Shown: positions 2,550 through 14,034 of the stretch, in pieces
Layout: each line of letters begins with the position of its first letter
Numbering within the stretch: the first letter of the stretch is position 1
From: a virus
UHGV virus genome: UHGV-0061697
Direction: 5' to 3' (one strand)
DNA: 14,426 nucleotides
The notes under the pieces: generated by a model
Told to the model about the DNA's origin: nothing
Seen by the model: only the letters and a program-made list of their open reading frames with translations
The model's database searches: none
Program-made: the position numbers and the translations under genes

Positions 2550-2632
2550 ATATGGCGGTAGCCCAGACGGGGGTAGGAATACCGGTAAACGAAGAAACCG
2601 GCCAGCTAAAAGCTGCCCCATCTGAGCCACCA
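2550..2632 (-). ncRNA. Candidate c4/CA-like antisense immunity RNA in the leader of the icd operon (boundaries approximate)
   Basis: About 370 nt of non-coding leader upstream of icd on the minus strand. It contains stable hairpins (CCGGU-N10-ACCGG, CAGCU-UUU-AGCUG), a tRNA-like 5' segment (GGUGGCUCAGAUGG), and an element UUCCUACC complementary to two identical copies of GTTCCTACGC (plus strand 2538-2547 and 2704-2713) that flank it. This arrangement recalls the P4 CI and P1 c4 systems. Ends were not determined. Confidence 0.3.
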
Positions 2633-2796
2633 TAAATTTGGTGTACGCAGATTTTACACACAAAAAAACACGCTGGCGCGTGTTGTGCGCTTCATTTACT
2701 CGGGTTCCTACGCCCGGCTACGGGATTTACCGTAGCGGAGTAAACTTTACCGTCAAAACGACGCGCACGTCAATAATTTGCAAAGACATTTTACCC

Positions 2797-2810
2797 CGTG
2801 ACCAGTCACG
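2797..2810. repeat. 14-bp palindromic motif CGTGACCAGTCACG (copy 1 of 3; extended palindrome ccccgtgaccagtcacgggg 2794-2813)
   Basis: Exact 14-mer, the reverse complement of the copies at 7477-7490 and 13483-13496. Lies in the intergenic region between the 103-aa gene and the immA leader; a T-run follows on the plus strand (gtgttttta). Confidence 0.5.
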
Positions 2811-2874
2811 GGGACAGGTGTTTTTATAATTTGCTTGAACGAGTGATCAGAAGTTGATCGTTAATCAAAGGCCA

Positions 2875-3183
2875 TTACTGATTAAGAGATTGGAAATACC
2901 TAACTAACTTACCGGCATCATCACATTTTTCTTTATCTTCGTTCTTAACATAGCCGCGACAAAAGGCTGAATAAAATTTTGCATTTTCAGAAGCAAAAGC
3001 AGCCGTCGAAAGGAGCAGCTCTTTGCATGACTCTTTTGATGCAGCATCGGGATTATTTTTACATGCAAGCTCCGCTGATGAGTTAATAACAGAAATGCTA
3101 TCTTCCTGGGCATAAACCGCAGCAGAAAAGGCAAAACATAAAACAAAAATAAAACTCTTCACTTTATCTCCTGTAACAGTCAT
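2875..3183 (-). CDS. Small secreted Cys-containing protein (about 102 aa, predicted signal peptide)
   Basis: ORF from track. N-terminus MTVTGDKVKSFIFVLCFAFSAAVYA-QEDS has the n/h/c layout of a Sec signal peptide with an AxA-like cleavage site. Mature part has 4 Cys. No lipobox. ATG at 3183 preferred over GTG at 3186. Confidence 0.5.
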   Translation of the reverse strand: MTVTGDKVKSFIFVLCFAFSAAVYAQEDSISVINSSAELACKNNPDAASKESCKELLLSTAAFASENAKFYSAFCRGYVKNEDKEKCDDAGKLVRYFQSLNQ

Positions 3184-3189
3184 CACAAT

Positions 3190-3585
3190 TCAATCAACTT
3201 TTTTAGCATCAGCCATACGATTCAACCAGGAATCAACAATCGGTTGCTCATCTACAGAATGTTTACCAGGTATAACTCGCCAGCTATCTTGCGAAAATCT
3301 GCCGTACTTACGCGGGAATAGGCCTTTCTTTATCTCCCGCCATGTACTAGGAAAACCATCCACAAAAGTACCAATTAACAGGAGAGGGACAAAAATCAGA
3401 GCTACAAACCATTGCGCAAGAAAGTGTTCAACAACAACATTTTCACCGTTGTAGTAATACGCATACGCATCCAATATGCGAATTTTCCTTACCTTAAAAA
3501 TAGCCTTATGCTGAGAACGACTTAACTTGATACGAATGTATCCCTTATCCAAAGGGGATTCGTATTTGTATGATTGAACAGCCAT
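3190..3585 (-). CDS. Hypothetical membrane protein (about 131 aa, one predicted TM helix)
   Basis: ORF from track, start moved to the ATG at 3585 (2 nt after the upstream stop). Hydrophobic segment FLAQWFVALIFVPLLLIGTFV. No recognisable family. Confidence 0.5.
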   Translation of the reverse strand: MAVQSYKYESPLDKGYIRIKLSRSQHKAIFKVRKIRILDAYAYYYNGENVVVEHFLAQWFVALIFVPLLLIGTFVDGFPSTWREIKKGLFPRKYGRFSQDSWRVIPGKHSVDEQPIVDSWLNRMADAKKVD

Positions 3586-3587
3586 TT

Positions 3588-3914
3588 TTAACCCCACTCA
3601 CCATCAGCAAACAAAGCGTTATACTCTGACAATGGTAGACGGTTGCCCTCGATGTAGAGATTCAGTTCATACTTCGTCTCCGGGTTTTCCTTGTCGGCTC
3701 GTTCCCAACGCTCAGCAGCCTTACGCGCCAATAATTCCACTGCTTTCAGATAATCCTCCGTACGGAACCAGCCAAAGATAAGGCCACGATCTGTTACAGC
3801 CCAGGCGACCTTTTTTTCTTCCTCCTGGATAGCCCTAATGCGTCGTTCGCACTCATCCCGGCAGAACTGCAGCTGACGGTAATCAAGTTTGTCCAAAAAT
3901 GCCGTAGTAGACAT
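3588..3914 (-). CDS. Hypothetical protein, 108 aa
   Basis: ORF from track (MSTTAFLDKLDYRQLQFCRDECERR...). Tightly packed between neighbours on the same strand. No family recognised. Confidence 0.5.
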   Translation of the reverse strand: MSTTAFLDKLDYRQLQFCRDECERRIRAIQEEEKKVAWAVTDRGLIFGWFRTEDYLKAVELLARKAAERWERADKENPETKYELNLYIEGNRLPLSEYNALFADGEWG

Positions 3915-3918
3915 ATTT

Positions 3919-4110
3919 TTACTCCCCGTTCACCGAAAATTCACGATAGAAACGTTTCCACATACGATAAGTCTGCGCAAATTGTTCACCACGAAACATC
4001 GCCTTCCTGGCCTTCATGTTTTCCTTGTGAGACTTTCGGTCTATGAACCAAAACCATTGATGGAACACACAAAGCAAGAGACACAAAGATAATATCCAAT
4101 CATTACCCAT
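3919..4110 (-). CDS. Small hydrophobic/basic protein (63 aa), start overlapping the repA stop
   Basis: Internal ATG of track ORF 3919..4227 (MGNDWILSLCLLLCVFHQWFWFIDRKSHKEN...). The track's longer version would overlap 125 nt of repA. One TM-like segment followed by a basic tail. Could be spurious. Confidence 0.35.
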   Translation of the reverse strand: MGNDWILSLCLLLCVFHQWFWFIDRKSHKENMKARKAMFRGEQFAQTYRMWKRFYREFSVNGE

Positions 4111-7100
4111 AGAAAGCGCCCTGCTCTTCGTAGCTGCATGAGCTATTCCCCGTAATGTATTCACGTAACCGCCGCAGCTCATTGCTGGAAAGGTGATCCA
4201 TGAACTCTGTGAGGTACAGGGATGCAAACGTCATAGCTATGCTGGCTGATGACCATGATGACATAGTGGCCAACTCCTCACTGGAAAGCGCACTCATCGC
4301 CCAGGACTCAGGTACAGCCACTGGCAACACGGCCAAAGCCTCAGAAATTACTGAATGAGGGGCGTTTTGAACCTGCTCGTTTGTGGATCGCGTTTTATCA
4401 TCCATATATATATTGAGATCCAAATCGCGATCCATTTCGATGGCTGTCTTCTCGGCTTTACGCGTTTTTAGGGTTAGGCCATCTTTCTGACGCTGAACAA
4501 GAATATCCAGCATAAATGCCGCTGATTCAGGCTCAACAAAACGCAAGGTTGGACGCTTATCGCCGTCTCTGCCGCGACGTTTACCTGTTTTAAGGCCAAG
4601 AGAGTCGCAAATGTTTTTAAACAACGCTTCCGGCACTTTAGGCTTCCCTTTTGGCGTCATAAAACCACCAATGTGCAGAACGTTATTCAACAGGTCACGG
4701 CGTTCGGCTGTCATGAGGTTATCTCGAGCGAATTTGAGACGCTCCTGAGTCGCCTCGCCGGTCATAGTCTCAGGGTTGATACCGCAGTCGATAAAGTACT
4801 GCCGGAGAGTTGCTGATTTAAGCGCATAGAAACCGCGCGCCCCGACTTCAACAGTAGGAGTAGCTTTTACCTTGTGATCGATTATTCCAGGGAATTTAGT
4901 TTTAAAGACATCATCAGCCTGCTCGCGAGTCATCGCGGTCACTACAAAATATTGCCACTGTCCCGCCTGACGGTATGCGTAGGTAAAATTGATGGCTGCT
5001 TCTTCCCGGTCGTAACGACGAGCTGTTACCTCATCTAAAAGCATTGTTTCATAGCGGCGAACTTTGTCTCGAGCACCATCGAAATAGAATTTCAGCGTGC
5101 CTTCTTCAACCGGTAGTTTCAGTTCGTTTTCAATATCCCAGCGGACAAGTTTTGCCTGTTCTTCAAGCGTCAGCGCGCGTTTTTTTAGCAGTTCTTCACG
5201 CTCTGATTCTTGTGGAGTTTCTGTATTGAGGTGCAGATCCAGTGTCTGTTCCCACACAATATCCCGCGCTTCTTTACGCAGATCTTTACCGATATCATTC
5301 GCAGCATAATCGGTGGCCAGCGGTGATACCTTATAACCGTCGCTGTGCATGATGCAGATCATGTTGCTGGCGTAGTCGTTACGCGCAGTCGCTTCAATTG
5401 CGGCTGCTTTAATTTTCATCCTGGTAAAGTCGGTATTGGCCACCCCCATTGATATACGGTCGCCATCGAAAACGACATCCGTCAGTTCACCGTTCATACC
5501 TGCGGTAGCAAGCAATGCCTGGGCGAATGCTCGTTCTATTTTTTGCGGGTCAGTTTCACGTTTTGCACGAGCTTTATCAAAGCCGATAATAAATTCTTTT
5601 GCTGTACGGTCGCGGCGTAGCATTTGCACTGCGTCGCTGGGTACAACTTCACCACAGAACATGCCGAAATGACGGTCAAAATGTTTTTGCTCAATCGACA
5701 CGCCGGATGAAATAGACGGGCTATAAATCAGGCCGTCGTATTTTTTGACCATCTTTTTCGGTTGATTGGTAAATGCTTCAACTTCTGGCTCTGGTTTGTT
5801 TTTCTGGTTTACACACAGAAATTTCTTACCAGGAAAATGCATTCTCAGGGTGGCTGTCACATCTTCTGCAAAGGTGGAGCTGTCGGTGGCCAACATGATT
5901 TTTTCGCCATCCGATACAGCTTTCACCACCTCGGTCATGATGCGATCTTTTTCTGTATAAAAAACCCGGATTGGCTCACCTGTTTCGCGGTTGCGAACAT
6001 CAACAGGTAATTCAATTACGTGGATCTGCAGCCATGCCGGTAAACCTAGTTCTTCACGGCGTTTCATAGCCAGTTCAGCCAGGTCAACCAGTAGATCGTT
6101 CGCATCAGCATCCACCATGATTGGGTGTTGTTCCGTTCTGGCCAGCGCGTCAATTAGCGTATTGAATACAGCAACCGGGTTTTCCATAGCCCGACCGGAA
6201 AGAACGGCACGTAGCCCTTGCGTGGCCTCGTCAAAGCCAAAATAGTCGTGCTGGCGCATCAACGGTTGCCAGCAGTTTTTAACAATCGAGTTTATGCAGA
6301 TGGTCAGTTTACTGGCGTATGGAGCCATTTCCTGATAGCCAGGGTCCTGATAGTGCAGGATATCGGCTTTTACACCTTTTCCTTCTGTCATCATTTCCCA
6401 CAGGCCACCAATAAGGGAGACACGGTGAGCAACAGAGATACCACGTTCTGAGCTATGCATTAACGGTCGTAACAATCCAGTAGATTTGCCGGAACCCATA
6501 CCAGCACGGACGATGACTATCCCCTGTAGTGATTGCACGTACTTCAGGACATCATCGGTCATTACCGAAGTTTCAAAACGCTTATAGGTGATATGTTGAG
6601 GGCGTTTATTGGGATCAGTTATGCGTTCGCTGAAAGAGCGCGGAGCCTGGGCAATACGGCACTTTTTATTCAGGCGACGGGCAATGTGGTCTTTTACCGT
6701 AGCACGATAGATATTTTCCAGTCCCATTTCACGCAGAACGATGCAGAACATGTTAAATAAATCTGACGGACTGTTAGGAACCGGGCAGGTTAGCATGCCA
6801 ATATCCACCGCTCTCAGCAGCTCTTTGGCAAAAGTACGACGGTTATCCCGCTTAATTGTCTTCAGGCGGTTGAGCGTCAGAGATAGCAAATCAGTACCGG
6901 TTTTCAGGCGGTTTGCTGTTGCAAATAGTTGACGTGCTGTTTCACGAAGTCCACGTAGTTTGTGCAGGTCGTTGAAGTCACTGCACTCCATTTGCGGATC
7001 GTCTTCAAAAGTTGGATAGACGCAGCGGACATCGTTGAATTTCGATAAGATTTCATAGCCAGTCCGCAGGCCGGTATTCCCTTTTCCTTCTGTGGCAGAT

Positions 7101-8098
7101 TTCCGGTCATTATCCAGTGCGCAGGTGATTTTTGCCGCCGGGTACATGTTTACCAGTTGTTCCACAACATGAACCATGTTGTTAGCGGATACAGCGACAA
7201 CCACAGCGTCAAAGCGTTTATCTTTTTTCGTGGCAAGCCAGATGGATGCACCAGTAGCAAAACCTTCTGTAACAGCGATGTTTTGCGCCCCTTTCAGCTC
7301 ACCGATAACAAAGCAGGCACCGACGAAATCGCCGCTGGTTACTGCGCTGGTCTGGTATTTCCCACCTTGTTTGTCGATTCGCTGCCAACCCACAATACGA
7401 CCATCATAACGACCGTCCAGGTGAGCCAGAGGGATAGCCATATATGTGGTTGGCCCCCGGCTCCATTTCGCACTGTCGTGACTGGTCACGCGACGCACAT
7501 CACATGAACTAAAAACGTCACGAATACCTTTTTTAATCGCATATGGCCATGAGCCGTCTTCAGCCTGAGCATGTTCCCACGCGCTGTGGAATGCCAGCCA
7601 TCCCAGCAAACGTTCATGGTCCATTTGGTTGTTTTTCAGGTCATTAATTCGTTTTTGTTCTTCACGGCGACGACGTGCTTCGGCCTGACGTTCTATTCTT
7701 TCCCGTTCTTCTTCCGGTTGTGCGACCACGGTCGCATTATTCCGTTGTTGCTCACGGCGATATTCAGAAAACAGGAAGGAGAAACCGCTCCATGAGCCAG
7801 CATCGCTGCCTTTATGGACGAAGTTAATGAACGGGTAATCAATCCCTTTGCTGTGTTCCAGCCTGGAGTAAATTTCTACGCGTCCTTTCAGGCTCTTTTC
7901 GAGAGCTTCTGGAGATGTTTTATTGTATGAAGAGTAACGCTCAACCCCCCCGCGAGGGTTGAGTTGGATGTTGTCGGAACAGGCAGGCCAGTTGATACCA
8001 GCCATCTGTGCCAGCTCGGTTAGTTCATCCCGTGCTGCTTCAATTAGCGAGAACGGATCGCTGCCAAAGCGATCCGCATAGAAATCGTTTAATGTCAT
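4103..8098 (-). CDS. repA: Replication protein RepA (multidomain primase-helicase, P4 alpha / N15 RepA family), 1331 aa
   Basis: Single 1331-aa ORF; N15 RepA is about 1320 aa. Walker A motif GMGSGKST is present (RAGMGSGKSTGLL). Position between the immA-like operon and cB matches N15 organisation. Recognition is from memory, not search. Confidence 0.88.
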   Translation of the reverse strand: MTLNDFYADRFGSDPFSLIEAARDELTELAQMAGINWPACSDNIQLNPRGGVERYSSYNKTSPEALEKSLKGRVEIYSRLEHSKGIDYPFINFVHKGSDAGSWSGFSFLFSEYRREQQRNNATVVAQPEEERERIERQAEARRRREEQKRINDLKNNQMDHERLLGWLAFHSAWEHAQAEDGSWPYAIKKGIRDVFSSCDVRRVTSHDSAKWSRGPTTYMAIPLAHLDGRYDGRIVGWQRIDKQGGKYQTSAVTSGDFVGACFVIGELKGAQNIAVTEGFATGASIWLATKKDKRFDAVVVAVSANNMVHVVEQLVNMYPAAKITCALDNDRKSATEGKGNTGLRTGYEILSKFNDVRCVYPTFEDDPQMECSDFNDLHKLRGLRETARQLFATANRLKTGTDLLSLTLNRLKTIKRDNRRTFAKELLRAVDIGMLTCPVPNSPSDLFNMFCIVLREMGLENIYRATVKDHIARRLNKKCRIAQAPRSFSERITDPNKRPQHITYKRFETSVMTDDVLKYVQSLQGIVIVRAGMGSGKSTGLLRPLMHSSERGISVAHRVSLIGGLWEMMTEGKGVKADILHYQDPGYQEMAPYASKLTICINSIVKNCWQPLMRQHDYFGFDEATQGLRAVLSGRAMENPVAVFNTLIDALARTEQHPIMVDADANDLLVDLAELAMKRREELGLPAWLQIHVIELPVDVRNRETGEPIRVFYTEKDRIMTEVVKAVSDGEKIMLATDSSTFAEDVTATLRMHFPGKKFLCVNQKNKPEPEVEAFTNQPKKMVKKYDGLIYSPSISSGVSIEQKHFDRHFGMFCGEVVPSDAVQMLRRDRTAKEFIIGFDKARAKRETDPQKIERAFAQALLATAGMNGELTDVVFDGDRISMGVANTDFTRMKIKAAAIEATARNDYASNMICIMHSDGYKVSPLATDYAANDIGKDLRKEARDIVWEQTLDLHLNTETPQESEREELLKKRALTLEEQAKLVRWDIENELKLPVEEGTLKFYFDGARDKVRRYETMLLDEVTARRYDREEAAINFTYAYRQAGQWQYFVVTAMTREQADDVFKTKFPGIIDHKVKATPTVEVGARGFYALKSATLRQYFIDCGINPETMTGEATQERLKFARDNLMTAERRDLLNNVLHIGGFMTPKGKPKVPEALFKNICDSLGLKTGKRRGRDGDKRPTLRFVEPESAAFMLDILVQRQKDGLTLKTRKAEKTAIEMDRDLDLNIYMDDKTRSTNEQVQNAPHSVISEALAVLPVAVPESWAMSALSSEELATMSSWSSASIAMTFASLYLTEFMDHLSSNELRRLREYITGNSSCSYEEQGAFYG
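4384..4434. other. Candidate internal replication-origin element inside the 3' end of repA: 9-bp inverted repeat TGGATCGCG / CGCGATCCA around an AT-rich spacer with (AT)5 and three GATC sites
   Basis: Read directly: tggatcgcg (4384-4392) and cgcgatcca (4426-4434) flank ttttatcatccatatatatattgagatccaaat. N15-type replicons are reported to carry ori within the 3' part of repA (established knowledge). The function here is inferred. Confidence 0.3.
7477..7490. repeat. 14-bp palindromic motif CGTGACTGGTCACG (copy 2 of 3), inside the repA coding sequence
   Basis: Exact 14-mer identical to 13483-13496 and reverse complement of 2797-2810. Confidence 0.5.
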
Positions 8099-8221
8099 TT
8101 TTTAGCCATTCCATGCGAATTATGTTTTTTCGGGTTGAAAAAATCCGCAGGAGCAGCCACAATAAACGCATCTTGAATTGACGGAATCCGTCGCGTTACT
8201 GTGGCTGCTTCCTGAAAAGGA

Positions 8222-8249
8222 CCCGAGTTTGCCGACTCGGGTTTTTTTT
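8222..8249. terminator. Intrinsic-terminator-like hairpin between cB and repA (stem CCCGAGT/ACTCGGG, 6-nt loop, T8 on plus strand; A-run and UCCUUUU on minus strand)
   Basis: Stem 8222-8228 / 8235-8241 and T-run 8242-8249 read directly. Canonical on the plus strand, weaker in the minus (cB to repA) direction. Possibly bidirectional or an attenuator of read-through into repA. Confidence 0.45.
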
Positions 8250-8343
8250 CGTCTTTTTTCTGCTGCTGTAACCTGAGTCAACCCACAGAACATATGCCCT
8301 GCATTAAACCAGATTTACAGCAAACAATAAACCCCGTATTAAG

Positions 8344-8940
8344 TCATCTACCCTCAACCATGAATGATTTGATCGTTCCGACTATTTGGTGAACAAATTC
8401 AAGATCGCTTTTCCTGAAGATGGCGCGTTGTGAGTTTGTTCCATCCAGATAGTAATTTTCATCATCAAAACGGGCCAGGCGCTGGATAGTGATATTTCCT
8501 GCAGTATCACGAACCAGAACATCCTCGCCGGGGACCAGTTCCAGCGCAGAATCGACCAGGAGAAAATCGCCTGGCTGATAGTTTCCCTGCGTAAGATTGC
8601 TGATAGTTAACGCATACACAGTATTGCGCTGGCTGATGAATGGCAGGAATCGCTCAGTATTTGGAACCTGTCCCGGCTTCCACTCTTCATCCGGCCCACT
8701 TTCAGTTGTGCCAATAACAGGAATGCGATCAGGGTCATATTCTGTCCCATATAGCACCCAATGCACTGGCTTGCGTAAGCACTTAGCCAGGGCAATACCT
8801 ATCTCCAGTGACGGCATTACGTCGCCACGTTCTAAGTTTTGGACGCCTGCTATAGAGATATCGACAGCCTCAGCAACTTCTCGCAACGTCAGCTTCATCT
8901 CTAAACGGCGTGCTTTCAGTCGTTCGCCTCGTGTTTTCAT
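8344..8940 (-). CDS. cB: Prophage repressor CB (N-terminal HTH, C-terminal LexA/CI-like S24 fold), 198 aa
   Basis: ORF from track. N-terminal HTH LTLREVAEAVDISIAGVQNLERG; C-terminal GDFLLVD...GEDVLVRD...ITIQRL pattern typical of the S24-like domain. Divergent from a cro-like gene across an operator-bearing intergenic region. Confidence 0.85.
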   Translation of the reverse strand: MKTRGERLKARRLEMKLTLREVAEAVDISIAGVQNLERGDVMPSLEIGIALAKCLRKPVHWVLYGTEYDPDRIPVIGTTESGPDEEWKPGQVPNTERFLPFISQRNTVYALTISNLTQGNYQPGDFLLVDSALELVPGEDVLVRDTAGNITIQRLARFDDENYYLDGTNSQRAIFRKSDLEFVHQIVGTIKSFMVEGR

Positions 8941-8962
8941 ACTGTAATCATAAATGATCTTC

Positions 8963-9004
8963 TTATAGCTGGCTATAAAATTTATTTATTATAGCTAGCT
9001 TTAA
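8963..9004. promoter_or_regulatory. Two operator-like palindromes in the cB-cro intergenic region: TTATAGC-TG-GCTATAA (8963-8978) and TTATAGC-TA-GCTTTAA (8989-9004), centres 26 bp apart
   Basis: Inverted repeats read directly. Location between divergent repressor and cro genes is the classical place for repressor operators. A third palindrome ATCATAAATGAT (8947-8958) lies next to the cB start. Confidence 0.5.
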
Positions 9005-9031
9005 TTGTTGTTTATTGTTTATAATAACAAC

Positions 9032-9253
9032 ATGAAACCAGAAGAACTTATTCGCCATTTTGGCAGTGTAGAAAAAGCAGCGGCAGGGGTAGGTGTAACA
9101 CCCGGAGCTGTTTACCAATGGTTAACCGCTGGAGAGATTCCTTCATTGCGGCAAAGCGATATTGAAGTTCGTACTGCTTACAAGCTGAAGAGTGACTTTA
9201 CAACTCGGCGGGTAAAGCAGTCGATTAAGGAGAGTCGTAAGCGTGGAGCTTGA
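9032..9253 (+). CDS. cro: Cro-like HTH regulator (73 aa)
   Basis: Internal ATG of track ORF 9005..9253 (the track start is TTG). MKPEELIRHFGSVEKAAAGVGVTPGAVYQWL is a Cro/CI-type HTH. TATAAT at 9020-9025 sits 6 nt before the ATG, with no Shine-Dalgarno, which suggests a leaderless mRNA. Confidence 0.7.
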   Translation: MKPEELIRHFGSVEKAAAGVGVTPGAVYQWLTAGEIPSLRQSDIEVRTAYKLKSDFTTRRVKQSIKESRKRGA

Positions 9254-9938
9254 ATATATACGCAGCTGCGTCTCTACGGCATTGGCTGATGTTCATTATC
9301 GCCAGCGTGGCATTCTGGAGGTCCAGCTTGAGCAGATGCGTCTCGGTAGATCAGGACGGTTTAACAATAAACCAGTCCGGTCAATCAGTGTGGGGGATGA
9401 TAACTCATACGAAGTGTCCGTTCCTGCTGAGCCGGTTAGATTCCATCAGGGGAAAACATTTAAACAATCATCAATGTTGCTCACTGATATTGATTTTCAG
9501 AGCGCCAGCTGGCGCAGGGCTATTGGTCAGTTGAATAACGAGGAATCAGCCTGGCTTTATTATTGCTACGGATGCAAGCCTGATTACAACAATGATGTGA
9601 TTGTTTGTCAGTGGTTATGGCTTCATTCGGGGGGCGGCTTTAAAAAAATGAAGGCCTCCACGAAAAAAGCCATGCGGAAATTGATTTATTACGCGGCACA
9701 ACAGGTTAAATCAGAACTTACGTGTGCTGAGGCAGTTGATGAGAGAGAACAGGACAGGCATCTGAGTTTTCTACTGAATATATCTATTGATAGCTGGAGA
9801 CAAGATTATAAAGAACGCTGGCTTTTAATTAAGTCGCGATGTCTGAGCTTAAATCGAACTGCATTATTAAATGCGGCGGAGAAGCGCAGTGAAATCATCA
9901 AACGCCATCGGGCAGGAAGTGCCATTCTGCCTTTGTAA
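9243..9938 (+). CDS. Putative Q-like late antiterminator (231 aa); assignment positional
   Basis: ORF from track with GTG start and AAGGAG 10 nt upstream. It follows cro as Q does in the N15 immB region (cB, cro, Q). I cannot confirm family membership from sequence alone. Confidence 0.4.
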   Translation: MELEYIRSCVSTALADVHYRQRGILEVQLEQMRLGRSGRFNNKPVRSISVGDDNSYEVSVPAEPVRFHQGKTFKQSSMLLTDIDFQSASWRRAIGQLNNEESAWLYYCYGCKPDYNNDVIVCQWLWLHSGGGFKKMKASTKKAMRKLIYYAAQQVKSELTCAEAVDEREQDRHLSFLLNISIDSWRQDYKERWLLIKSRCLSLNRTALLNAAEKRSEIIKRHRAGSAILPL

Positions 9939-9945
9939 ACAAGTT

Positions 9946-10191
9946 ATGTTCAGGAAACCGTCGAAGCCAGAATTAAGGTATTCGGGGGTAAGAAATGAAT
10001 ATGTTATCTGGTGTCCAACTTGTGGTTACAGGACACGACCAGATAGTAATAAGCAGTCTGTAATTGCCGATTGGTATTTATCAAATCAGCCAGGTAATAA
10101 GCATATAGAAAATCTTTGGATTAAGCGTTACTTGGAAATCAGAGAGGGTGCGACCGTGGTCGCACAAGAAAATGAAAATAACGCCATTTAA
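9946..10191 (+). CDS. Small protein with a single CPxCG zinc-ribbon-like motif (81 aa); weak resemblance to Lar-type restriction alleviation proteins
   Basis: Internal ATG of track ORF 9871..10191, chosen because it starts just after the Q-like stop. Motif VIWCPTCGY...ADWYLSNQ. Only one CxxC pair, so the Lar assignment is tentative. Confidence 0.4.
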   Translation: MFRKPSKPELRYSGVRNEYVIWCPTCGYRTRPDSNKQSVIADWYLSNQPGNKHIENLWIKRYLEIREGATVVAQENENNAI

Positions 10192-10375
10192 GCAGGGGCC
10201 GATGACGCATGATGAAGCAGAGCGTCTTTCAGATACTTATCGGCGGCGTGGTAAGAAAGTTCTGGTTGTTCGTTCTGATTTTTTAGGTGATGGATATTGT
10301 GTTTATGTTCATTTACCTGAATCAGAAAGAACGCCAAAACCATCCAGAACATATCAACAGAAAATTTGGGTATAG
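10148..10375 (+). CDS. Hypothetical small protein (start uncertain: GTG 10148, ATG 10172 or ATG 10205)
   Basis: ORF from track; overlaps the previous gene in another frame; no clear RBS for any of the three starts. Confidence 0.3.
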   Translation: MRPWSHKKMKITPFKQGPMTHDEAERLSDTYRRRGKKVLVVRSDFLGDGYCVYVHLPESERTPKPSRTYQQKIWV

Positions 10376-10398
10376 ATAAACGTTGAGGAGAATTATTC

Positions 10399-10998
10399 GT
10401 GACTAATCAGATTATTTACGACAGGAAACGGTCTGATGTAATGATTGACCTTGAAACAATGGGTACTAACACATGTGCTCCAATTGTTTCTATCGGGGCA
10501 GTGTTTTTTTCTCCAGAAAGTGAGGAATTAGGTCCTACTTTTTATGTGCCAGTGAATCTCAGAAGCTCGATGTTGAATGGTGGTATCGCCGATGGTGATA
10601 CCATTTTATGGTGGTTGAAACAGAGCAAGGAAGCCAGAGCCGCTATTTGTACTAATGATGCCCTTGATATTAAGGATGCACTTTTTGAATTATCACACTT
10701 TATTACTTGCCATGCATGTAATTTAAAAAAGTTGAAAGTATGGGGAAATGGAGCAACGTTCGATAATGTAATTTTACGCGGTGCTTATGAGCGCGTTGGC
10801 TTAGCCTGTCCGTGGGAATATTTTAATGATCAGGATGTTCGAACAATCGTTAATCTTGGTCAGTTTATTGGTTTTAATCCTAAAAAAGATATGCCATTTG
10901 ATGGCGAACGACACAATGCCCTGGCTGATGCTATTCATCAGGCTAAATATGTATCCGCAATTTTCTCCCGTCTTGTAAAAGGGCAAGGAGAATCGTAA
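10399..10998 (+). CDS. DEDDh-family 3'-5' exonuclease (DnaQ/RNase T-like fold), 199 aa
   Basis: Exo motifs read from the translation: MIDLETMG (exo I, D/E), WGNGATFD (exo II), HNALADAIHQAKY (exo III, H and D). GTG start with GAGGAG 8 nt upstream. Confidence 0.75.
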   Translation: MTNQIIYDRKRSDVMIDLETMGTNTCAPIVSIGAVFFSPESEELGPTFYVPVNLRSSMLNGGIADGDTILWWLKQSKEARAAICTNDALDIKDALFELSHFITCHACNLKKLKVWGNGATFDNVILRGAYERVGLACPWEYFNDQDVRTIVNLGQFIGFNPKKDMPFDGERHNALADAIHQAKYVSAIFSRLVKGQGES

Positions 10999-11417
10999 TG
11001 GCAAAGGCTTTTACACCAGAACAGAGGGAAGAACTGAATAAACAAATTGTGGAACTCGTGCGCCTGAATGGACGAGGAACGGTTAGGCAACTTGCGGATG
11101 AAACTGGTATTAGCCGGTGTGCTGTTAGTCGTTTATCAAGAGAGCTTGCTGCCAGTGGTGATTTGTATATCTCTGGCTCCGGGATATTTCTGTCTGCACA
11201 AGCACGCAAGGACTGGCAAAACGCCCGTAAAAAACTATCAAGAGTAAAGCCGAAGAAATCGGTAGTGGTTGATCCAGACCTTATCTGGTCATTACCTGAC
11301 GGAGAAATACGTCGTTACGACAGGCGCTTGAACATGATTTGTCACGATTGCCGGAAAAGTGAAGTTATGCAGCGTGTGCTGGCTTTTTATCAGGGAAATT
11401 TACAGGAGGTGGCGTAG
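10998..11417 (+). CDS. Hypothetical protein with probable helix-turn-helix (139 aa)
   Basis: ORF from track; HTH-like segment TVRQLADETGISRCAVSRLSRELA. Start overlaps the previous stop (TAATG) with AAGGAG upstream. Confidence 0.55.
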   Translation: MAKAFTPEQREELNKQIVELVRLNGRGTVRQLADETGISRCAVSRLSRELAASGDLYISGSGIFLSAQARKDWQNARKKLSRVKPKKSVVVDPDLIWSLPDGEIRRYDRRLNMICHDCRKSEVMQRVLAFYQGNLQEVA

Positions 11418-11707
11418 TGAATATCGACACCACGATAACGATCGATACGGCCCTAAATATCGGTCTGGCACTTCTCGGTTGGTTTTACATCATGTCCCGT
11501 GCATGGCGATGGCTTGGTTCCATTTTTCTAAAACAGTGGAAAAAACGGCGCAAACAGGAGAGACGCCAGAAAGCGTTAGAGGCGTTCTATGACGCATTTG
11601 AACTTAGCCGCATTGAGCCTGGCACAACAGCCAGGATAGCGACAAAAGGCGACCTGATGATAGTGATGTTCCGACAGGAGAGAGCAGAGAAAGGGGAATC
11701 AGCATGA
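11417..11707 (+). CDS. Small membrane protein (96 aa; one N-terminal TM helix then a highly basic segment)
   Basis: ORF from track; GTG start overlapping the upstream stop (TAGTG) with GGAGGTGG upstream. TM segment ALNIGLALLGWFYIM followed by KQWKKRRKQERRQK. Confidence 0.45.
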   Translation: MNIDTTITIDTALNIGLALLGWFYIMSRAWRWLGSIFLKQWKKRRKQERRQKALEAFYDAFELSRIEPGTTARIATKGDLMIVMFRQERAEKGESA

Positions 11708-12438
11708 AATTTTCCAAATTTTCTGAGTTGGTGAATCGTATTTTGTCCAACAACCACAGCCATCGTCGCGATATGGATGTAACAATCGTTATTCATTCGC
11801 CTGGCAGCATTGGTTCAACACCCTCAGTTGAGGTTCAGTCAATTCACGCTGGTTTTGATTGGGATTCCGGGAAAGTGCTGATTTTCCCAGCACAGCCACT
11901 GACCACGCTAACACCAGAACAGATTACTGATATTACTGATAGTGTGCGCAAAGGTCAGTCCTGGCACGCATATCAGGAATACAAGAAGCATAAAGAGCAG
12001 TTGGAAAAATTGTCGATTGAACTGGATGCTGCAAAACAGCGCGTAGCAGAACTGGAAGCCAAACCTGTAAGCCAAACTTACAAGTTAACTTTTGAGCAAT
12101 GGCTGGAACAGCAGCATGACAAAATTGATGTTGATTGTGGATGTGTAAGTACTGAAATGTTTATGCACTGGATAAGGGTCGCGTATGAGGCTGGCAACTA
12201 TCCGGTAACTCCGGATGGTTGGATAAGCTGTAGTGAGCGAATGCCTGAAAAGGGCGAGAACGTGCTTATTTCGGTGAATTTCGATAGCTCTCTGGTTGAA
12301 CCGCTAATATGCTCCGCACGCTATACCGGAAGCACCTTTCGGAGAGGAGATGCAACGATTAAGCCGGGTAATGGTATTGAGCAAGCAACTCACTGGATGC
12401 CGCTACCAGAACCTCCGCAGGAGTCGAAGAGTGAATAA
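11704..12438 (+). CDS. Hypothetical protein with C-terminal DUF551-like domain (244 aa)
   Basis: ORF from track. The C-terminal segment PVTPDGWISCSERMPEKGENVLISV...ATHWMPLPEPP resembles the small phage DUF551 domain as I remember it. ATGA overlap with the upstream gene. Confidence 0.55.
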   Translation: MKFSKFSELVNRILSNNHSHRRDMDVTIVIHSPGSIGSTPSVEVQSIHAGFDWDSGKVLIFPAQPLTTLTPEQITDITDSVRKGQSWHAYQEYKKHKEQLEKLSIELDAAKQRVAELEAKPVSQTYKLTFEQWLEQQHDKIDVDCGCVSTEMFMHWIRVAYEAGNYPVTPDGWISCSERMPEKGENVLISVNFDSSLVEPLICSARYTGSTFRRGDATIKPGNGIEQATHWMPLPEPPQESKSE

Positions 12439-12652
12439 AGCAGAGTTATTTCAGAAAATATCGGCTCTCGCGACTGAATGCCACGCTATAGCATCTGAGC
12501 TTGATGTTGGCGATGAACGAACCGAGATGTTCGAAATATACAGTGTGCTGCGCAATCTCTGTCGGCGTGGCTACGCCACTCAAGTAGGGCGAATGACTAA
12601 CCCACTACTCTCATCCTGTGATGAGGATGACTCGGATGAGGATGACGAATGA
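12431..12652 (+). CDS. Hypothetical small protein with acidic C-terminus (about 73 aa)
   Basis: Track ORF 12350..12652 trimmed to the GTG at 12431, which has AGGAG 7 nt upstream; the longer version overlaps the DUF551 gene extensively. C-terminus DEDDSDEDDE. Confidence 0.4.
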   Translation: MNKAELFQKISALATECHAIASELDVGDERTEMFEIYSVLRNLCRRGYATQVGRMTNPLLSSCDEDDSDEDDE

Positions 12653-13179
12653 TGCATAAAGCAGTAGCCGGTGAGTTTCAGAAGGAAGTCGATAATACTA
12701 CCGTTCTATTGGACGATATTTTAAGCATTCTCGCGTTGCTTGAGGCTGGCGATTGGTCAGAACATTGCACTAAAACAGAGCTAGGCGGTCGGCTTGAAAG
12801 AGAGATTACACGACTTATTGGTGATGCGCAGGAAGCCACTGTCACTGGCTATGAGTTAATCGCTGAAGCCTGGCGTTTGATGGATGGACAAGACCCTAAA
12901 ACCAGCGATTGGCATAGCAAGGCTTCGAAGTATTTAAATTCCAATATTGTAGAAAAAGTTGATGATGACCGTATTGAGGCCGTTAAGGCTGTGTTGCGTA
13001 GGCTGGCTGGCAACTCTCCGGTAACTCCGGATGGTCATGTTCAGTTTTCTGTTTCACTTCCTGCAGCGTTTGGTGGAGATAAATATTTTATTGATGGTGT
13101 ATTTCAACCTTTGAGATATGAGCGTGACTGTGAAAGGGCGGTTGTGGCCGCTGGCGGTGTAGTTAATTGGGTTAAGTAA
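12649..13179 (+). CDS. Hypothetical protein (176 aa) sharing a 30-nt GN-x-PVTPDG segment with the DUF551-like gene
   Basis: ORF from track; ATGA overlap with the upstream gene. Confidence 0.5.
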   Translation: MMHKAVAGEFQKEVDNTTVLLDDILSILALLEAGDWSEHCTKTELGGRLEREITRLIGDAQEATVTGYELIAEAWRLMDGQDPKTSDWHSKASKYLNSNIVEKVDDDRIEAVKAVLRRLAGNSPVTPDGHVQFSVSLPAAFGGDKYFIDGVFQPLRYERDCERAVVAAGGVVNWVK

Positions 13180-13262
13180 TTTTCAGGAGGATTTATGGCG
13201 CTGACACCGGCAGAACGGCAAAGGAGACGCAGGACTGGATTCTAGAACCTGACGAGTTACGT

Positions 13263-13487
13263 ATGTTGGGGGAAATTTGTGTATTGCGTAGACCAGGGCG
13301 AGTTCCATATTCGGAGAACGAAGTCATTGGTTTGCTGATCAGGAAAAACTATAAGGAGCTGCAGAAGCAGCTATCTACTACTTGCCCGCGATGTGGTCAA
13401 AAAATGCCTGTTTCAGAATGCATTTTTGATGGCGAAGGGTCATGCCACCTTACAACCACGAGGCTGAAACTTGCGCTCAAAGCGTGA
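13263..13487 (+). CDS. Hypothetical small Cys-containing protein (74 aa; CPRCG...C...CH); possibly the 3' part of a disrupted gene
   Basis: ORF from track. No Shine-Dalgarno before the ATG, whereas a strong AGGAGG precedes a 16-codon ORF (13195-13245) in another frame just upstream. Confidence 0.35.
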   Translation: MLGEICVLRRPGRVPYSENEVIGLLIRKNYKELQKQLSTTCPRCGQKMPVSECIFDGEGSCHLTTTRLKLALKA

Positions 13488-13496
13488 CTGGTCACG
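13483..13496. repeat. 14-bp palindromic motif CGTGACTGGTCACG (copy 3 of 3), spanning the stop of the 74-aa ORF and abutting the RBS of the next gene
   Basis: Exact 14-mer read directly. Confidence 0.5.
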
Positions 13497-13505
13497 GAGG
13501 GATAA

Positions 13506-13748
13506 ATGGATAAAAAGGCATTGCTTTTTGAAATGATACGAAAACGGAGCGAAAAGAGCTTTTCTGATGGTGGTGATGGGTTTGTTTTCGCTTCGATGCT
13601 TGCTTTTGATGTTGGGTTAAATAGCAGAATTGTTAAAAGGATGCTTGATTCTGCTGTCCGTACTGGACTTCTTGAGAAAGTTGATCGTGGCATAGGGAGA
13701 GAGCATAAGTATCGGGCCACACAGCAGTTTACGCAGTTAATTCATTGA
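13506..13748 (+). CDS. Hypothetical protein (80 aa)
   Basis: ORF from track; GGAGGG RBS 4-9 nt upstream of the ATG. Confidence 0.5.
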   Translation: MDKKALLFEMIRKRSEKSFSDGGDGFVFASMLAFDVGLNSRIVKRMLDSAVRTGLLEKVDRGIGREHKYRATQQFTQLIH

Positions 13749-13770: not shown

Positions 13771-13798
13771 TTTACCCTGTAATTTTATACAGTATAAA
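13771..13798 (+). promoter_or_regulatory. Candidate SOS-regulated promoter: -35 TTTACC (13771-13776), -10 TATAAA (13793-13798), with a LexA box ccCTGTaattttatACAGta (13775-13794) filling the spacer
   Basis: CTGT-N8-ACAG with an AT-rich spacer matches the E. coli LexA box consensus taCTGTatatatatACAGta. It is the only such site I found in the window. Confidence 0.6.
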
Positions 13799-13830: not shown

Positions 13831-14034
13831 ATGTCTGAAGCAGCCGTATCAACTCTTGAACAACTCGATTCAAATTTAAGAGATATTGACGCCGTTCTGG
13901 ATCTGGTTAGCGTCACCCTGGCTTCTCCAGAAGCCAGCCTACATATTGGTGAGGTTTCACGACTCATCAACATGTCGCGAGAGATTGCCCAGCATTGTCA
14001 GAAAACTATCGCTGTTGAGCGTTCACATCATTGA
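13831..14034 (+). CDS. Small protein (67 aa) downstream of the LexA-box promoter; candidate SOS-induced antirepressor (AntC-like role)
   Basis: ORF from track (MSEAAVSTLEQLDSNLRDIDAVLDLVS...). The functional call is inferred from the LexA box and from N15 biology, not from sequence similarity. Confidence 0.45.
   Translation: MSEAAVSTLEQLDSNLRDIDAVLDLVSVTLASPEASLHIGEVSRLINMSREIAQHCQKTIAVERSHH

Follow-up and report, generated by a model that had tools for sequence, protein, structure and literature searches.

What is the role of an identical 14-bp palindrome that recurs at three dispersed places in a 14,426-nt stretch of the virus genome UHGV-0061697 (the window, i.e. the whole stretch of DNA analysed here), which belongs to an N15-like linear plasmid-prophage? 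Exact matching located CGTGACYRGTCACG three times in the window, at 2797-2810 (site 1, central dinucleotide CA), 7477-7490 (site 2) and 13483-13496 (site 3, like site 2 with TG at its centre), just as a sequence-only reading of this DNA had reported. That reading had not expected such recurrence by chance, and indeed none of 200 dinucleotide-preserving shuffles of the window gave any match; a relaxed search with three mismatches allowed added three matches, which is chance level (0.91 expected). The contexts that it described were also borne out, with site 1 being intergenic, site 2 lying within the repA open reading frame (ORF) and site 3 between two small ORFs. We found the palindrome to be conserved among relatives and tightly associated with the protein family of N15 gp46, the product of gene 46, and we propose, with a probability of roughly 60%, that the gp46-family protein of the phage uses the 14-mers as its set of operators.

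With the left arm of Escherichia phage PhiR46_1, a linear plasmid-prophage whose telL and telR sites are annotated, the window shares 97.7% identity; with N15 it shares approximately 76% and with phiKO2 approximately 74% over the aligning regions. Its gene order runs from the protelomerase gene through the antirepressor operon, repA, cB, cro and Q to a set of accessory early genes. In the N15/phiKO2-clade genomes examined (N15, phiKO2, PhiR46_1, YDC107_1, the Klebsiella phages 48ST307 and KpLi5, Enterobacter phage MStein-2023a and a Pseudocitrobacter prophage) the motif occupies three syntenic places, i.e. the stretch that separates the repA and antirepressor operons, a fixed set of codons in repA, and the stop codon of gene 46, and it was found nowhere else in these genomes. 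In N15 the three copies are at 28549, 33236 and 39268. The few clade copies that deviate have a single mismatch, in the outermost base. The sequence-only reading had named absence of the motif from relatives as the finding that would count against it; every clade genome checked had the motif at all three places. The same picture emerged from 44 N15-like IMG/VR loci, of which 41 have the stop-codon arrangement of gene 46. The motif was not found in the PY54-like relatives, whose RepA is about 50% identical (PY54 itself and loci from Xenorhabdus, L012, an unclassified enterobacterium, L013, and Erwinia, L014). One apparent site in the Xenorhabdus locus (L012:230) has two mismatches and lies inside a head protease gene, and is therefore probably due to chance. 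The 14-mers carry no annotation in the deposited N15 and phiKO2 records, and the strings CGTGACCAGTCACG, CGTGACTGGTCACG and GTGACATGTCAC were not found in some 8 million papers open to searching, outside which the primary N15 and phiKO2 papers lie, so that an earlier mention is possible.

The sequence-only reading had preferred to see in the 14-mers the partition (centromere) set of the element, bound by SopB, and had named a comparison with the SopB binding sites as a check. The dispersal of palindromes over an N15-type plasmid prophage fits this idea, as does the position of site 2 only 243 bp from a genuine SopB site in repA. However, the N15 SopB sites IR1-4 used experimentally are a different palindrome, GTGCGACCnnGGTCGCAC, synthesised for the experiments as oligonucleotides of the form GTGCGACC-NN-GGTCGCAC with natural flanks (PMC7205306, Table 4). 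These flanks match N15 positions 33479, 35930, 41124 and 45561, and the palindrome is present separately in the window and in all relatives: searching the window for GTGCGACCnnGGTCGCAC (F type TGGGACCnnGGTCCCA) with up to three mismatches returned positions 7720 and 10148 only, never the 14-mer sites. Four equivalent sites are labelled as putative partition sites in the phiKO2 GenBank record, in which the 14-mers go unlabelled, and PhiR46_1 has five SopB-type sites. The GAC/GTC cores stand 2 bp apart in the 14-mer and 4 bp apart in the SopB sites, and the half-sites differ too; the two are thus coexisting palindrome families. An unbiased scan for recurrent palindromes returned just these two families in both the window and N15, and a single one, sopC-like, in PY54. 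Sites of the 14-mer type also occur in integrating phages that show no SopB/ParB homologue (the phiV10 annotation lists none), and we regard SopB binding as practically untenable. The likeness to the type Ia centromeres of N15 and F (SopB-sopC) is that both consist of palindromes spread over the early region of the same plasmid prophage, with one copy within repA that is kept against synonymous drift; the 14-mers differ in sequence and half-site spacing, and their distribution tracks gp46 rather than SopB.

The comparative evidence instead supports the fallback of the sequence-only reading, the regulon of a regulator that it did not name, and points to the gp46 family. Only two N15 early genes, gene 46 and antA, occur in every telomere phage that bears the motif and are missing from the PY54-like ones. 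The core of the motif, GTGAC-N2-GTCAC (consensus Y-GTGAC-NN-GTCAC-R), co-occurs with gp46 homologues in phages of enterobacteria and Vibrio that represent about nine unrelated architectures, and the gp46 family is the only ORF family common to eight site-bearing genomes of different build, which also weighs against SopB. We counted 175 core sites in 1.59 Mb of gp46-bearing DNA, vs about 1.5 expected, and 0-4 for each of the other spacers tried (N0, N1 and N3-N6). The arms of the 175 sites are invariant, their central bases vary (TG/CA, AT, AC, GC, AG, CC/GG), and Y and R are favoured at the flanks. Between one and three copies are present in each of the 36 divergent IMG/VR loci (protein identity 38-44%), which makes 74 sites in 668 kb vs 0.64 expected; a P2-like Yersinia phage with a gp46 homologue has one, and two Vibrio phages, with gp46 homologues of about 35% identity, have three and two, one copy overlapping the TGA stop of the gene in one of them. 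Controls lacking a gp46 homologue gave 1 core match in 233 kb (the enteric phages lambda, P22, P2 and PY54 and the three PY54-like loci) and 2 in 747 kb (41 non-enteric loci).

Gene and site are also physically linked. The palindrome overlaps or abuts the stop codon of the gp46-family gene in N15-like and epsilon15-like phages, the L106 group, Vibrio phage L144 and Pectobacterium phage ZF40, in the last of which TTGTGACATGTCACAG lies 3 nt past the stop. The reverse test, starting from 120 viral stretches (about 10 kb each) that contain TGTGACATGTCACA, recovered a gp46-family gene in 32, with the site no more than 60 nt from the 3' end of that gene in 20 of the 32. From this co-occurrence and gene-site linkage we consider it quite probable that gp46 itself binds the 14-mer. 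In phiV10 (L057, DQ126339.2) the palindrome sits on the stop codon of the gp46 homologue p55, with one arm mismatch; the record was opened inside it (...GTGTGA / CATGTTACGA...) and the site is therefore invisible in the linear record.

Several other binders were considered and set aside. The product of gene 47, gp47, a probable winged-helix protein, has homologues in the motif-less PY54, L013 and L014, with no palindrome upstream, and is absent from the non-N15 carriers. AntA matches the phyletic pattern of gp46 within the telomere phages, yet is absent from the other carriers. The 14-mer has no match (up to three mismatches) in the annotated CB operators of N15 (34056-34094 and 34729-34793), which discards CB and Cro, and it shows no similarity to the LexA box (CTGT-N8-ACAG), the only one of the window lying at 13777-13792. 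The SlmA-binding site, GTGAGTACTCAC, differs from the motif at 3 of 12 positions. About 30 small proteins of the element were scanned against Pfam, with no MatP-like or other obvious candidate besides generic helix-turn-helix proteins.

The gp46 protein belongs to PHROG 536 (labelled 'transcriptional regulator') and matched no Pfam family. A profile search collected over 1000 clusters (90% identity), almost all of them carrying the name 'hypothetical protein' and not one with a Pfam domain, from Escherichia, Salmonella, Klebsiella, Citrobacter, Cronobacter, Pectobacterium, Xenorhabdus and other hosts. Invariant residues of the family include four C-terminal cysteines and a central R-R-P-G...Y...E...L-I-R motif. 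The AlphaFold model (predicted local distance difference test, pLDDT, 74.7) opens with a basic N-terminal helix, followed by an extended segment, two helices (residues 30-43 and 52-71) and a poorly ordered cysteine-rich tail; gp46 is predicted to be a ribbon-helix-helix (RHH) protein with a C-terminal four-cysteine region. Searching PDB sequences with the gp46 profile gave no significant match to any solved structure and did not recover MatP.

The arms of the 14-mer, GTGAC/GTCAC, are identical to those of matS, the binding site of MatP (GTGACRNYGTCAC, 13-bp GTGAC-RNY-GTCAC; PMC6907758). The spacer is 2 bp instead of 3 bp in all three window sites and all 175 related sites, and no 13-bp matS was found in N15-like genomes; with the spacer one base shorter and 13-mers lacking, the sites were therefore not filed as matS. 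A host protein, most obviously MatP (which acts on the Ter macrodomain and occurs in enterobacteria and Vibrio), might nonetheless bind them for prophage positioning or tethering, the link to gp46 being indirect. Like the MatP/matS system of the Escherichia coli Ter macrodomain, the phage sites combine these half-sites with a layout of several dispersed copies per replicon. MatP reads DNA through an RHH domain, and its host range is presumably similar to that of the gp46 family. Against a host protein stand the uniform 2-bp spacing of the 175 phage sites, the 3-bp matS spacing having occurred once in 1.59 Mb; the lack of such sites in enterobacterial phages without gp46 (lambda, P22, P2 and PY54); and the physical fusion of one site to the gp46 gene across distant phages. 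We judge binding by MatP or another host protein to be unlikely. Unlike MatP, gp46 is phage-encoded, its gene is linked to one site, and the two proteins have no detectable sequence homology (hhalign of a 58-sequence gp46 profile against E. coli MatP, probability 0.1%). The resemblance to matS is best treated as a lead, and so are the RHH fold class and host range that the two proteins would share; the half-site identity raises the questions of how RHH proteins read GTGAC and of phage cross-talk with the Ter-organising system of the host.

Selection on the palindrome at the DNA level is apparent at site 2, which on the minus strand encodes R-V-T-S-H-D. In a codon alignment of eight distinct repA genes (a 4-kb gene), 57% of all columns are invariant, but just 19% of the third positions of codons. 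The 14-mer forms the longest run of invariant nucleotides in this alignment (19 nt, window 7474-7492), followed by SopB site IR1 (15 nt). Because the 14-mer is the longest invariant run while so few third positions are invariant, site 2 is under selection as DNA, and the alignment indicates that it is constant beyond the needs of the protein sequence. In the repA genes of the PY54-like relatives there are two sopC-type palindromes (L012:10366/10631, L013:10369/10625 and L014:10362/10630), the second of which encodes W-D-H-G-P-N and lies 8 codons past the place of the N15-like 14-mer.

At site 3 the palindrome includes the TGA with which the gene 46 homologue stops (13485-13487), and its end lies 9 nt ahead of the ATG of the gene 47 homologue, immediately before the Shine-Dalgarno sequence of that gene. 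In the window, gene 46 itself is disrupted by the deletion, between 13231 and 13232, of 34 nt that PhiR46_1 and YDC107_1 have, and the frame shifts after codon 13: the ORF from the ATG at 13195 ends after 16 codons (MALTPAERQRRRRTGF-stop), and an internal ORF at 13263-13487 would be without the predicted DNA-binding strand. The DNA around the deletion is more than 99% identical to PhiR46_1 and all three sites are perfect, which fits a very recent mutation or a sequencing or assembly error. Given the frameshift, the 14-mers in this window may currently be orphan operators.

The position of site 3 ahead of a ribosome-binding site, shared in kind by many sites that lie just past stop codons or ahead of such sequences within operons, would also suit a motif acting as RNA, i.e. 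a short transcript hairpin serving as a processing, translational or termination signal, possibly read by the four-cysteine part of gp46. Site 1 of the window does fold better than its shuffles (z -2.83), and here extends to a 20-bp palindrome, CCCCGTGACCAGTCACGGGG. However, this extended stem is not kept in N15 or phiKO2, site 1 lies upstream of the predicted promoter, and the hairpins of site 2 (z 0.15), site 3 (z -0.84) and ZF40 (z -0.29) are no more stable than shuffles. Strict arms around a free 2-nt centre suit a dimer on duplex DNA more than a stem of 4-5 bp, and the predicted fold of gp46 is that of a DNA-binding domain. Rfam matched the window only away from the sites, at 2551-2736, and no terminator was called at the sites, nor any promoter predicted at sites 2 and 3. 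An RNA role is in our view very unlikely.

Site 1 stands in front of the antirepressor operon. The predicted transcription start lies about 67 bp downstream of its centre, and on the minus strand the palindrome lies 23 nt upstream of a conserved -35 hexamer, both palindrome and distance being invariant in six aligned relatives. A conserved TAAAAT directly beside the site might be another -10 element. As its leader (2551..2736, minus strand), the icd/antA antirepressor operon has an isrK-like RNA and a C4 antisense RNA (Table 1). Site 1 was considered as part of a widespread isrK/C4 antirepressor module, and this was rejected, as other phages have the RNA part only, without the palindrome; the combination of isrK and C4 RNAs is also found in PY54, an Aeromonas phage and P4. 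Approximately 30 nt upstream of site 1 there is a hairpin-forming repeat, ACTGATCAG-GTT-CTGATCAGT, with two GATC sites, which is kept in N15, phiKO2 and other aligned relatives and is degenerate in the window (ca. 2841-2861).

How gp46 might act from such positions is suggested by where the sites lie. Over half of them (52%) are within 40 nt of a gene 3' end, vs 17% of random positions, which is an approximately three-fold enrichment, and both core copies of phiV10 adjoin an intrinsic terminator. Together with the placement at an operon boundary, in repA and between genes 46 and 47, this suggests a roadblock or boundary role that limits read-through. A gp46 dimer would read the two GTGAC arms across the 2-bp spacer. 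One site would be welded to the regulator's own gene, the TGA stop codon forming part of the left arm, and the N15-like phages would have recruited two more, one upstream of the start of the antirepressor operon and one inside repA. Because its gene belongs to the early-right operon, gp46 would appear only upon derepression, and once bound would most likely serve as a repressor, roadblock or boundary element. It may limit transcription that leaves the repA operon for the antirepressor operon at site 1, that runs along repA at site 2, and that passes beyond gene 46 to gene 47 and antC at site 3, and its timing would couple repA, the antC region and the antirepressor operon to the lytic programme. 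Such action as a roadblock or boundary is speculative and is put forward tentatively, as one possibility.

The closest known parallels to this proposal are the RHH repressor/operator systems (P22 Arc, Mnt, CopG, MetJ, NikR and type II antitoxins), which likewise pair a small dimeric protein, of the strand-helix-helix fold predicted for gp46, with a short palindromic target of 12-14 bp. The 14-mers differ from those operators in being dispersed over more than 10 kb and in lying mostly at gene ends or inside genes, one of them on the stop codon of the regulator, rather than over the regulator's promoter; gp46 differs from those repressors in its extra N-terminal basic helix and C-terminal four-cysteine region, and in having no Pfam family. 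What appears to be new is the combination of a predicted RHH-type protein and its putative palindromic operators with a dispersed layout, a site fused to a stop codon, half-sites of the matS type, and a large uncharacterised protein family.

The dispersed layout also invites an architectural or segregational interpretation, in which gp46 oligomers would bridge distant sites, looping or condensing the genome, or gp46 would act as a small RHH centromere-binding protein, in the manner of MatP/matS or of the type Ib proteins ParG and omega. Two or three sites per genome, kilobases apart and mostly away from promoters, would suit such a role; RHH proteins include centromere binders and MatP; the arrangement of a gene with an adjacent site resembles partition cassettes; and in Vibrio phage L144 (PQ189290.1) the second palindrome copy (39335-39348) lies 136 nt upstream of an orphan parA-like gene. 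Conversely, most carriers are integrating prophages (epsilon15-like, P2-like and ZF40) with no need of partition, the N15-like phages already possess SopAB and four or five centromere sites, and gp46 has no demonstrated oligomerisation domain; we thus give this interpretation a rather small chance. The layout predicted for gp46, an RHH-type protein with a cognate site directly beside its gene, is that of the type Ib/II partition cassettes (ParG, omega, ParR). In contrast to them, most gp46 carriers lack a partner ATPase and integrate into the chromosome, and each locus has a single palindrome rather than a repeat array. The L144 element also encodes plasmid RepA-like proteins.

A variant that we rate as similarly improbable is that gp46 and its Y-GTGAC-N2-GTCAC-R sites form a phage-borne counterpart of MatP/matS, bridging or positioning two or three sites to organise, insulate or tether the genome. 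If true, gene and site would travel as one self-contained cassette, the stop codon lying within the site; the system would give N15-like plasmids a second, SopB-independent set of cis-acting maintenance sites, and might interfere with the Ter/MatP system of the host, the half-sites being common to both.

The findings bear on N15, which serves as the model for telomere phages and from which linear cloning vectors derive. Its cis-acting sites (tos, the CB operators and four SopB sites) were thought to be mapped, and to these the present analysis adds another conserved set of palindromes, whose members lie in three control regions (antirepressor operon, replication gene and antC region). The gp46 family gains a predicted fold, a predicted recognition sequence and defined targets. 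Table 1 lists the sites and the neighbouring features of the window.

Table 1. Palindromic sites and associated features in the window (positions in nt; strand given where assigned).
Feature	Position	Strand	Details
Site 1	2797..2810		CGTGACCAGTCACG, exact match; in the gap from the repA operon end to the antirepressor (immA-like) operon
Site 2	7477..7490		CGTGACTGGTCACG, exact match; in repA, ~610 nt past the start codon
Site 3	13483..13496		CGTGACTGGTCACG, exact match; on the stop codon of the gene 46 homologue, before the gene 47 homologue
Gene 46 homologue (PHROG 536)	13195..13487	+	Candidate binder; predicted ribbon-helix-helix and four-cysteine protein; frameshifted here
Gene 47 homologue (PHROG 13995)	13506..13748	+	Directly downstream of site 3
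repA	4103..8098	-	Primase/helicase replication protein, 1331 amino acids; contains site 2 and SopB site IR1
SopB centromere site, N15 IR1 equivalent	7720..7737		GTGCGACCACGGTCGCAT; in repA; outside the 14-mer system
SopB centromere site, N15 IR2 equivalent	10148..10165		GTGCGACCGTGGTCGCAC; downstream of Q; outside the 14-mer system
Predicted sigma-70 promoter	2744..2773	-	TTGACG, 18 nt, TAAAGT; hexamers conserved; predicted to drive the isrK-like/C4 RNA/icd/antA operon
isrK-like RNA	2663-2736	-	Rfam RF01394 (isrK Hfq-binding RNA), 62.5 bits, above gathering score; own terminator; model starts at 2736
C4 antisense RNA	2551-2637	-	Rfam RF01695, 73.6 bits, above gathering score

Downstream of gene 47, about 290 bp from site 3, the LexA box mentioned above is a perfect one (CTGTAATTTTATACAG). 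It is followed by a 67-amino-acid ORF (13831-14034) with weak resemblance to anti-repressors, which is probably an SOS-controlled equivalent of antC.

Two further observations concern the structure of the element and one of its relatives. Compared with PhiR46_1, the window contains an insertion of approximately 785 bp (ca. 12220-13004), with a short duplication at its flanks, that brings two additional ORFs (12350-12652 and 12649-13179), and some of the sequence next to it has matches in Stx-converting and other lambdoid phages. In YDC107_1 (L006, CP025712.1) the arm from telN to repA is present twice in inverted orientation, at 28021-36551 and 37493-45458, the second copy being fragmented, and this doubled arm looks like a head-to-head assembly across the hairpin telomere.

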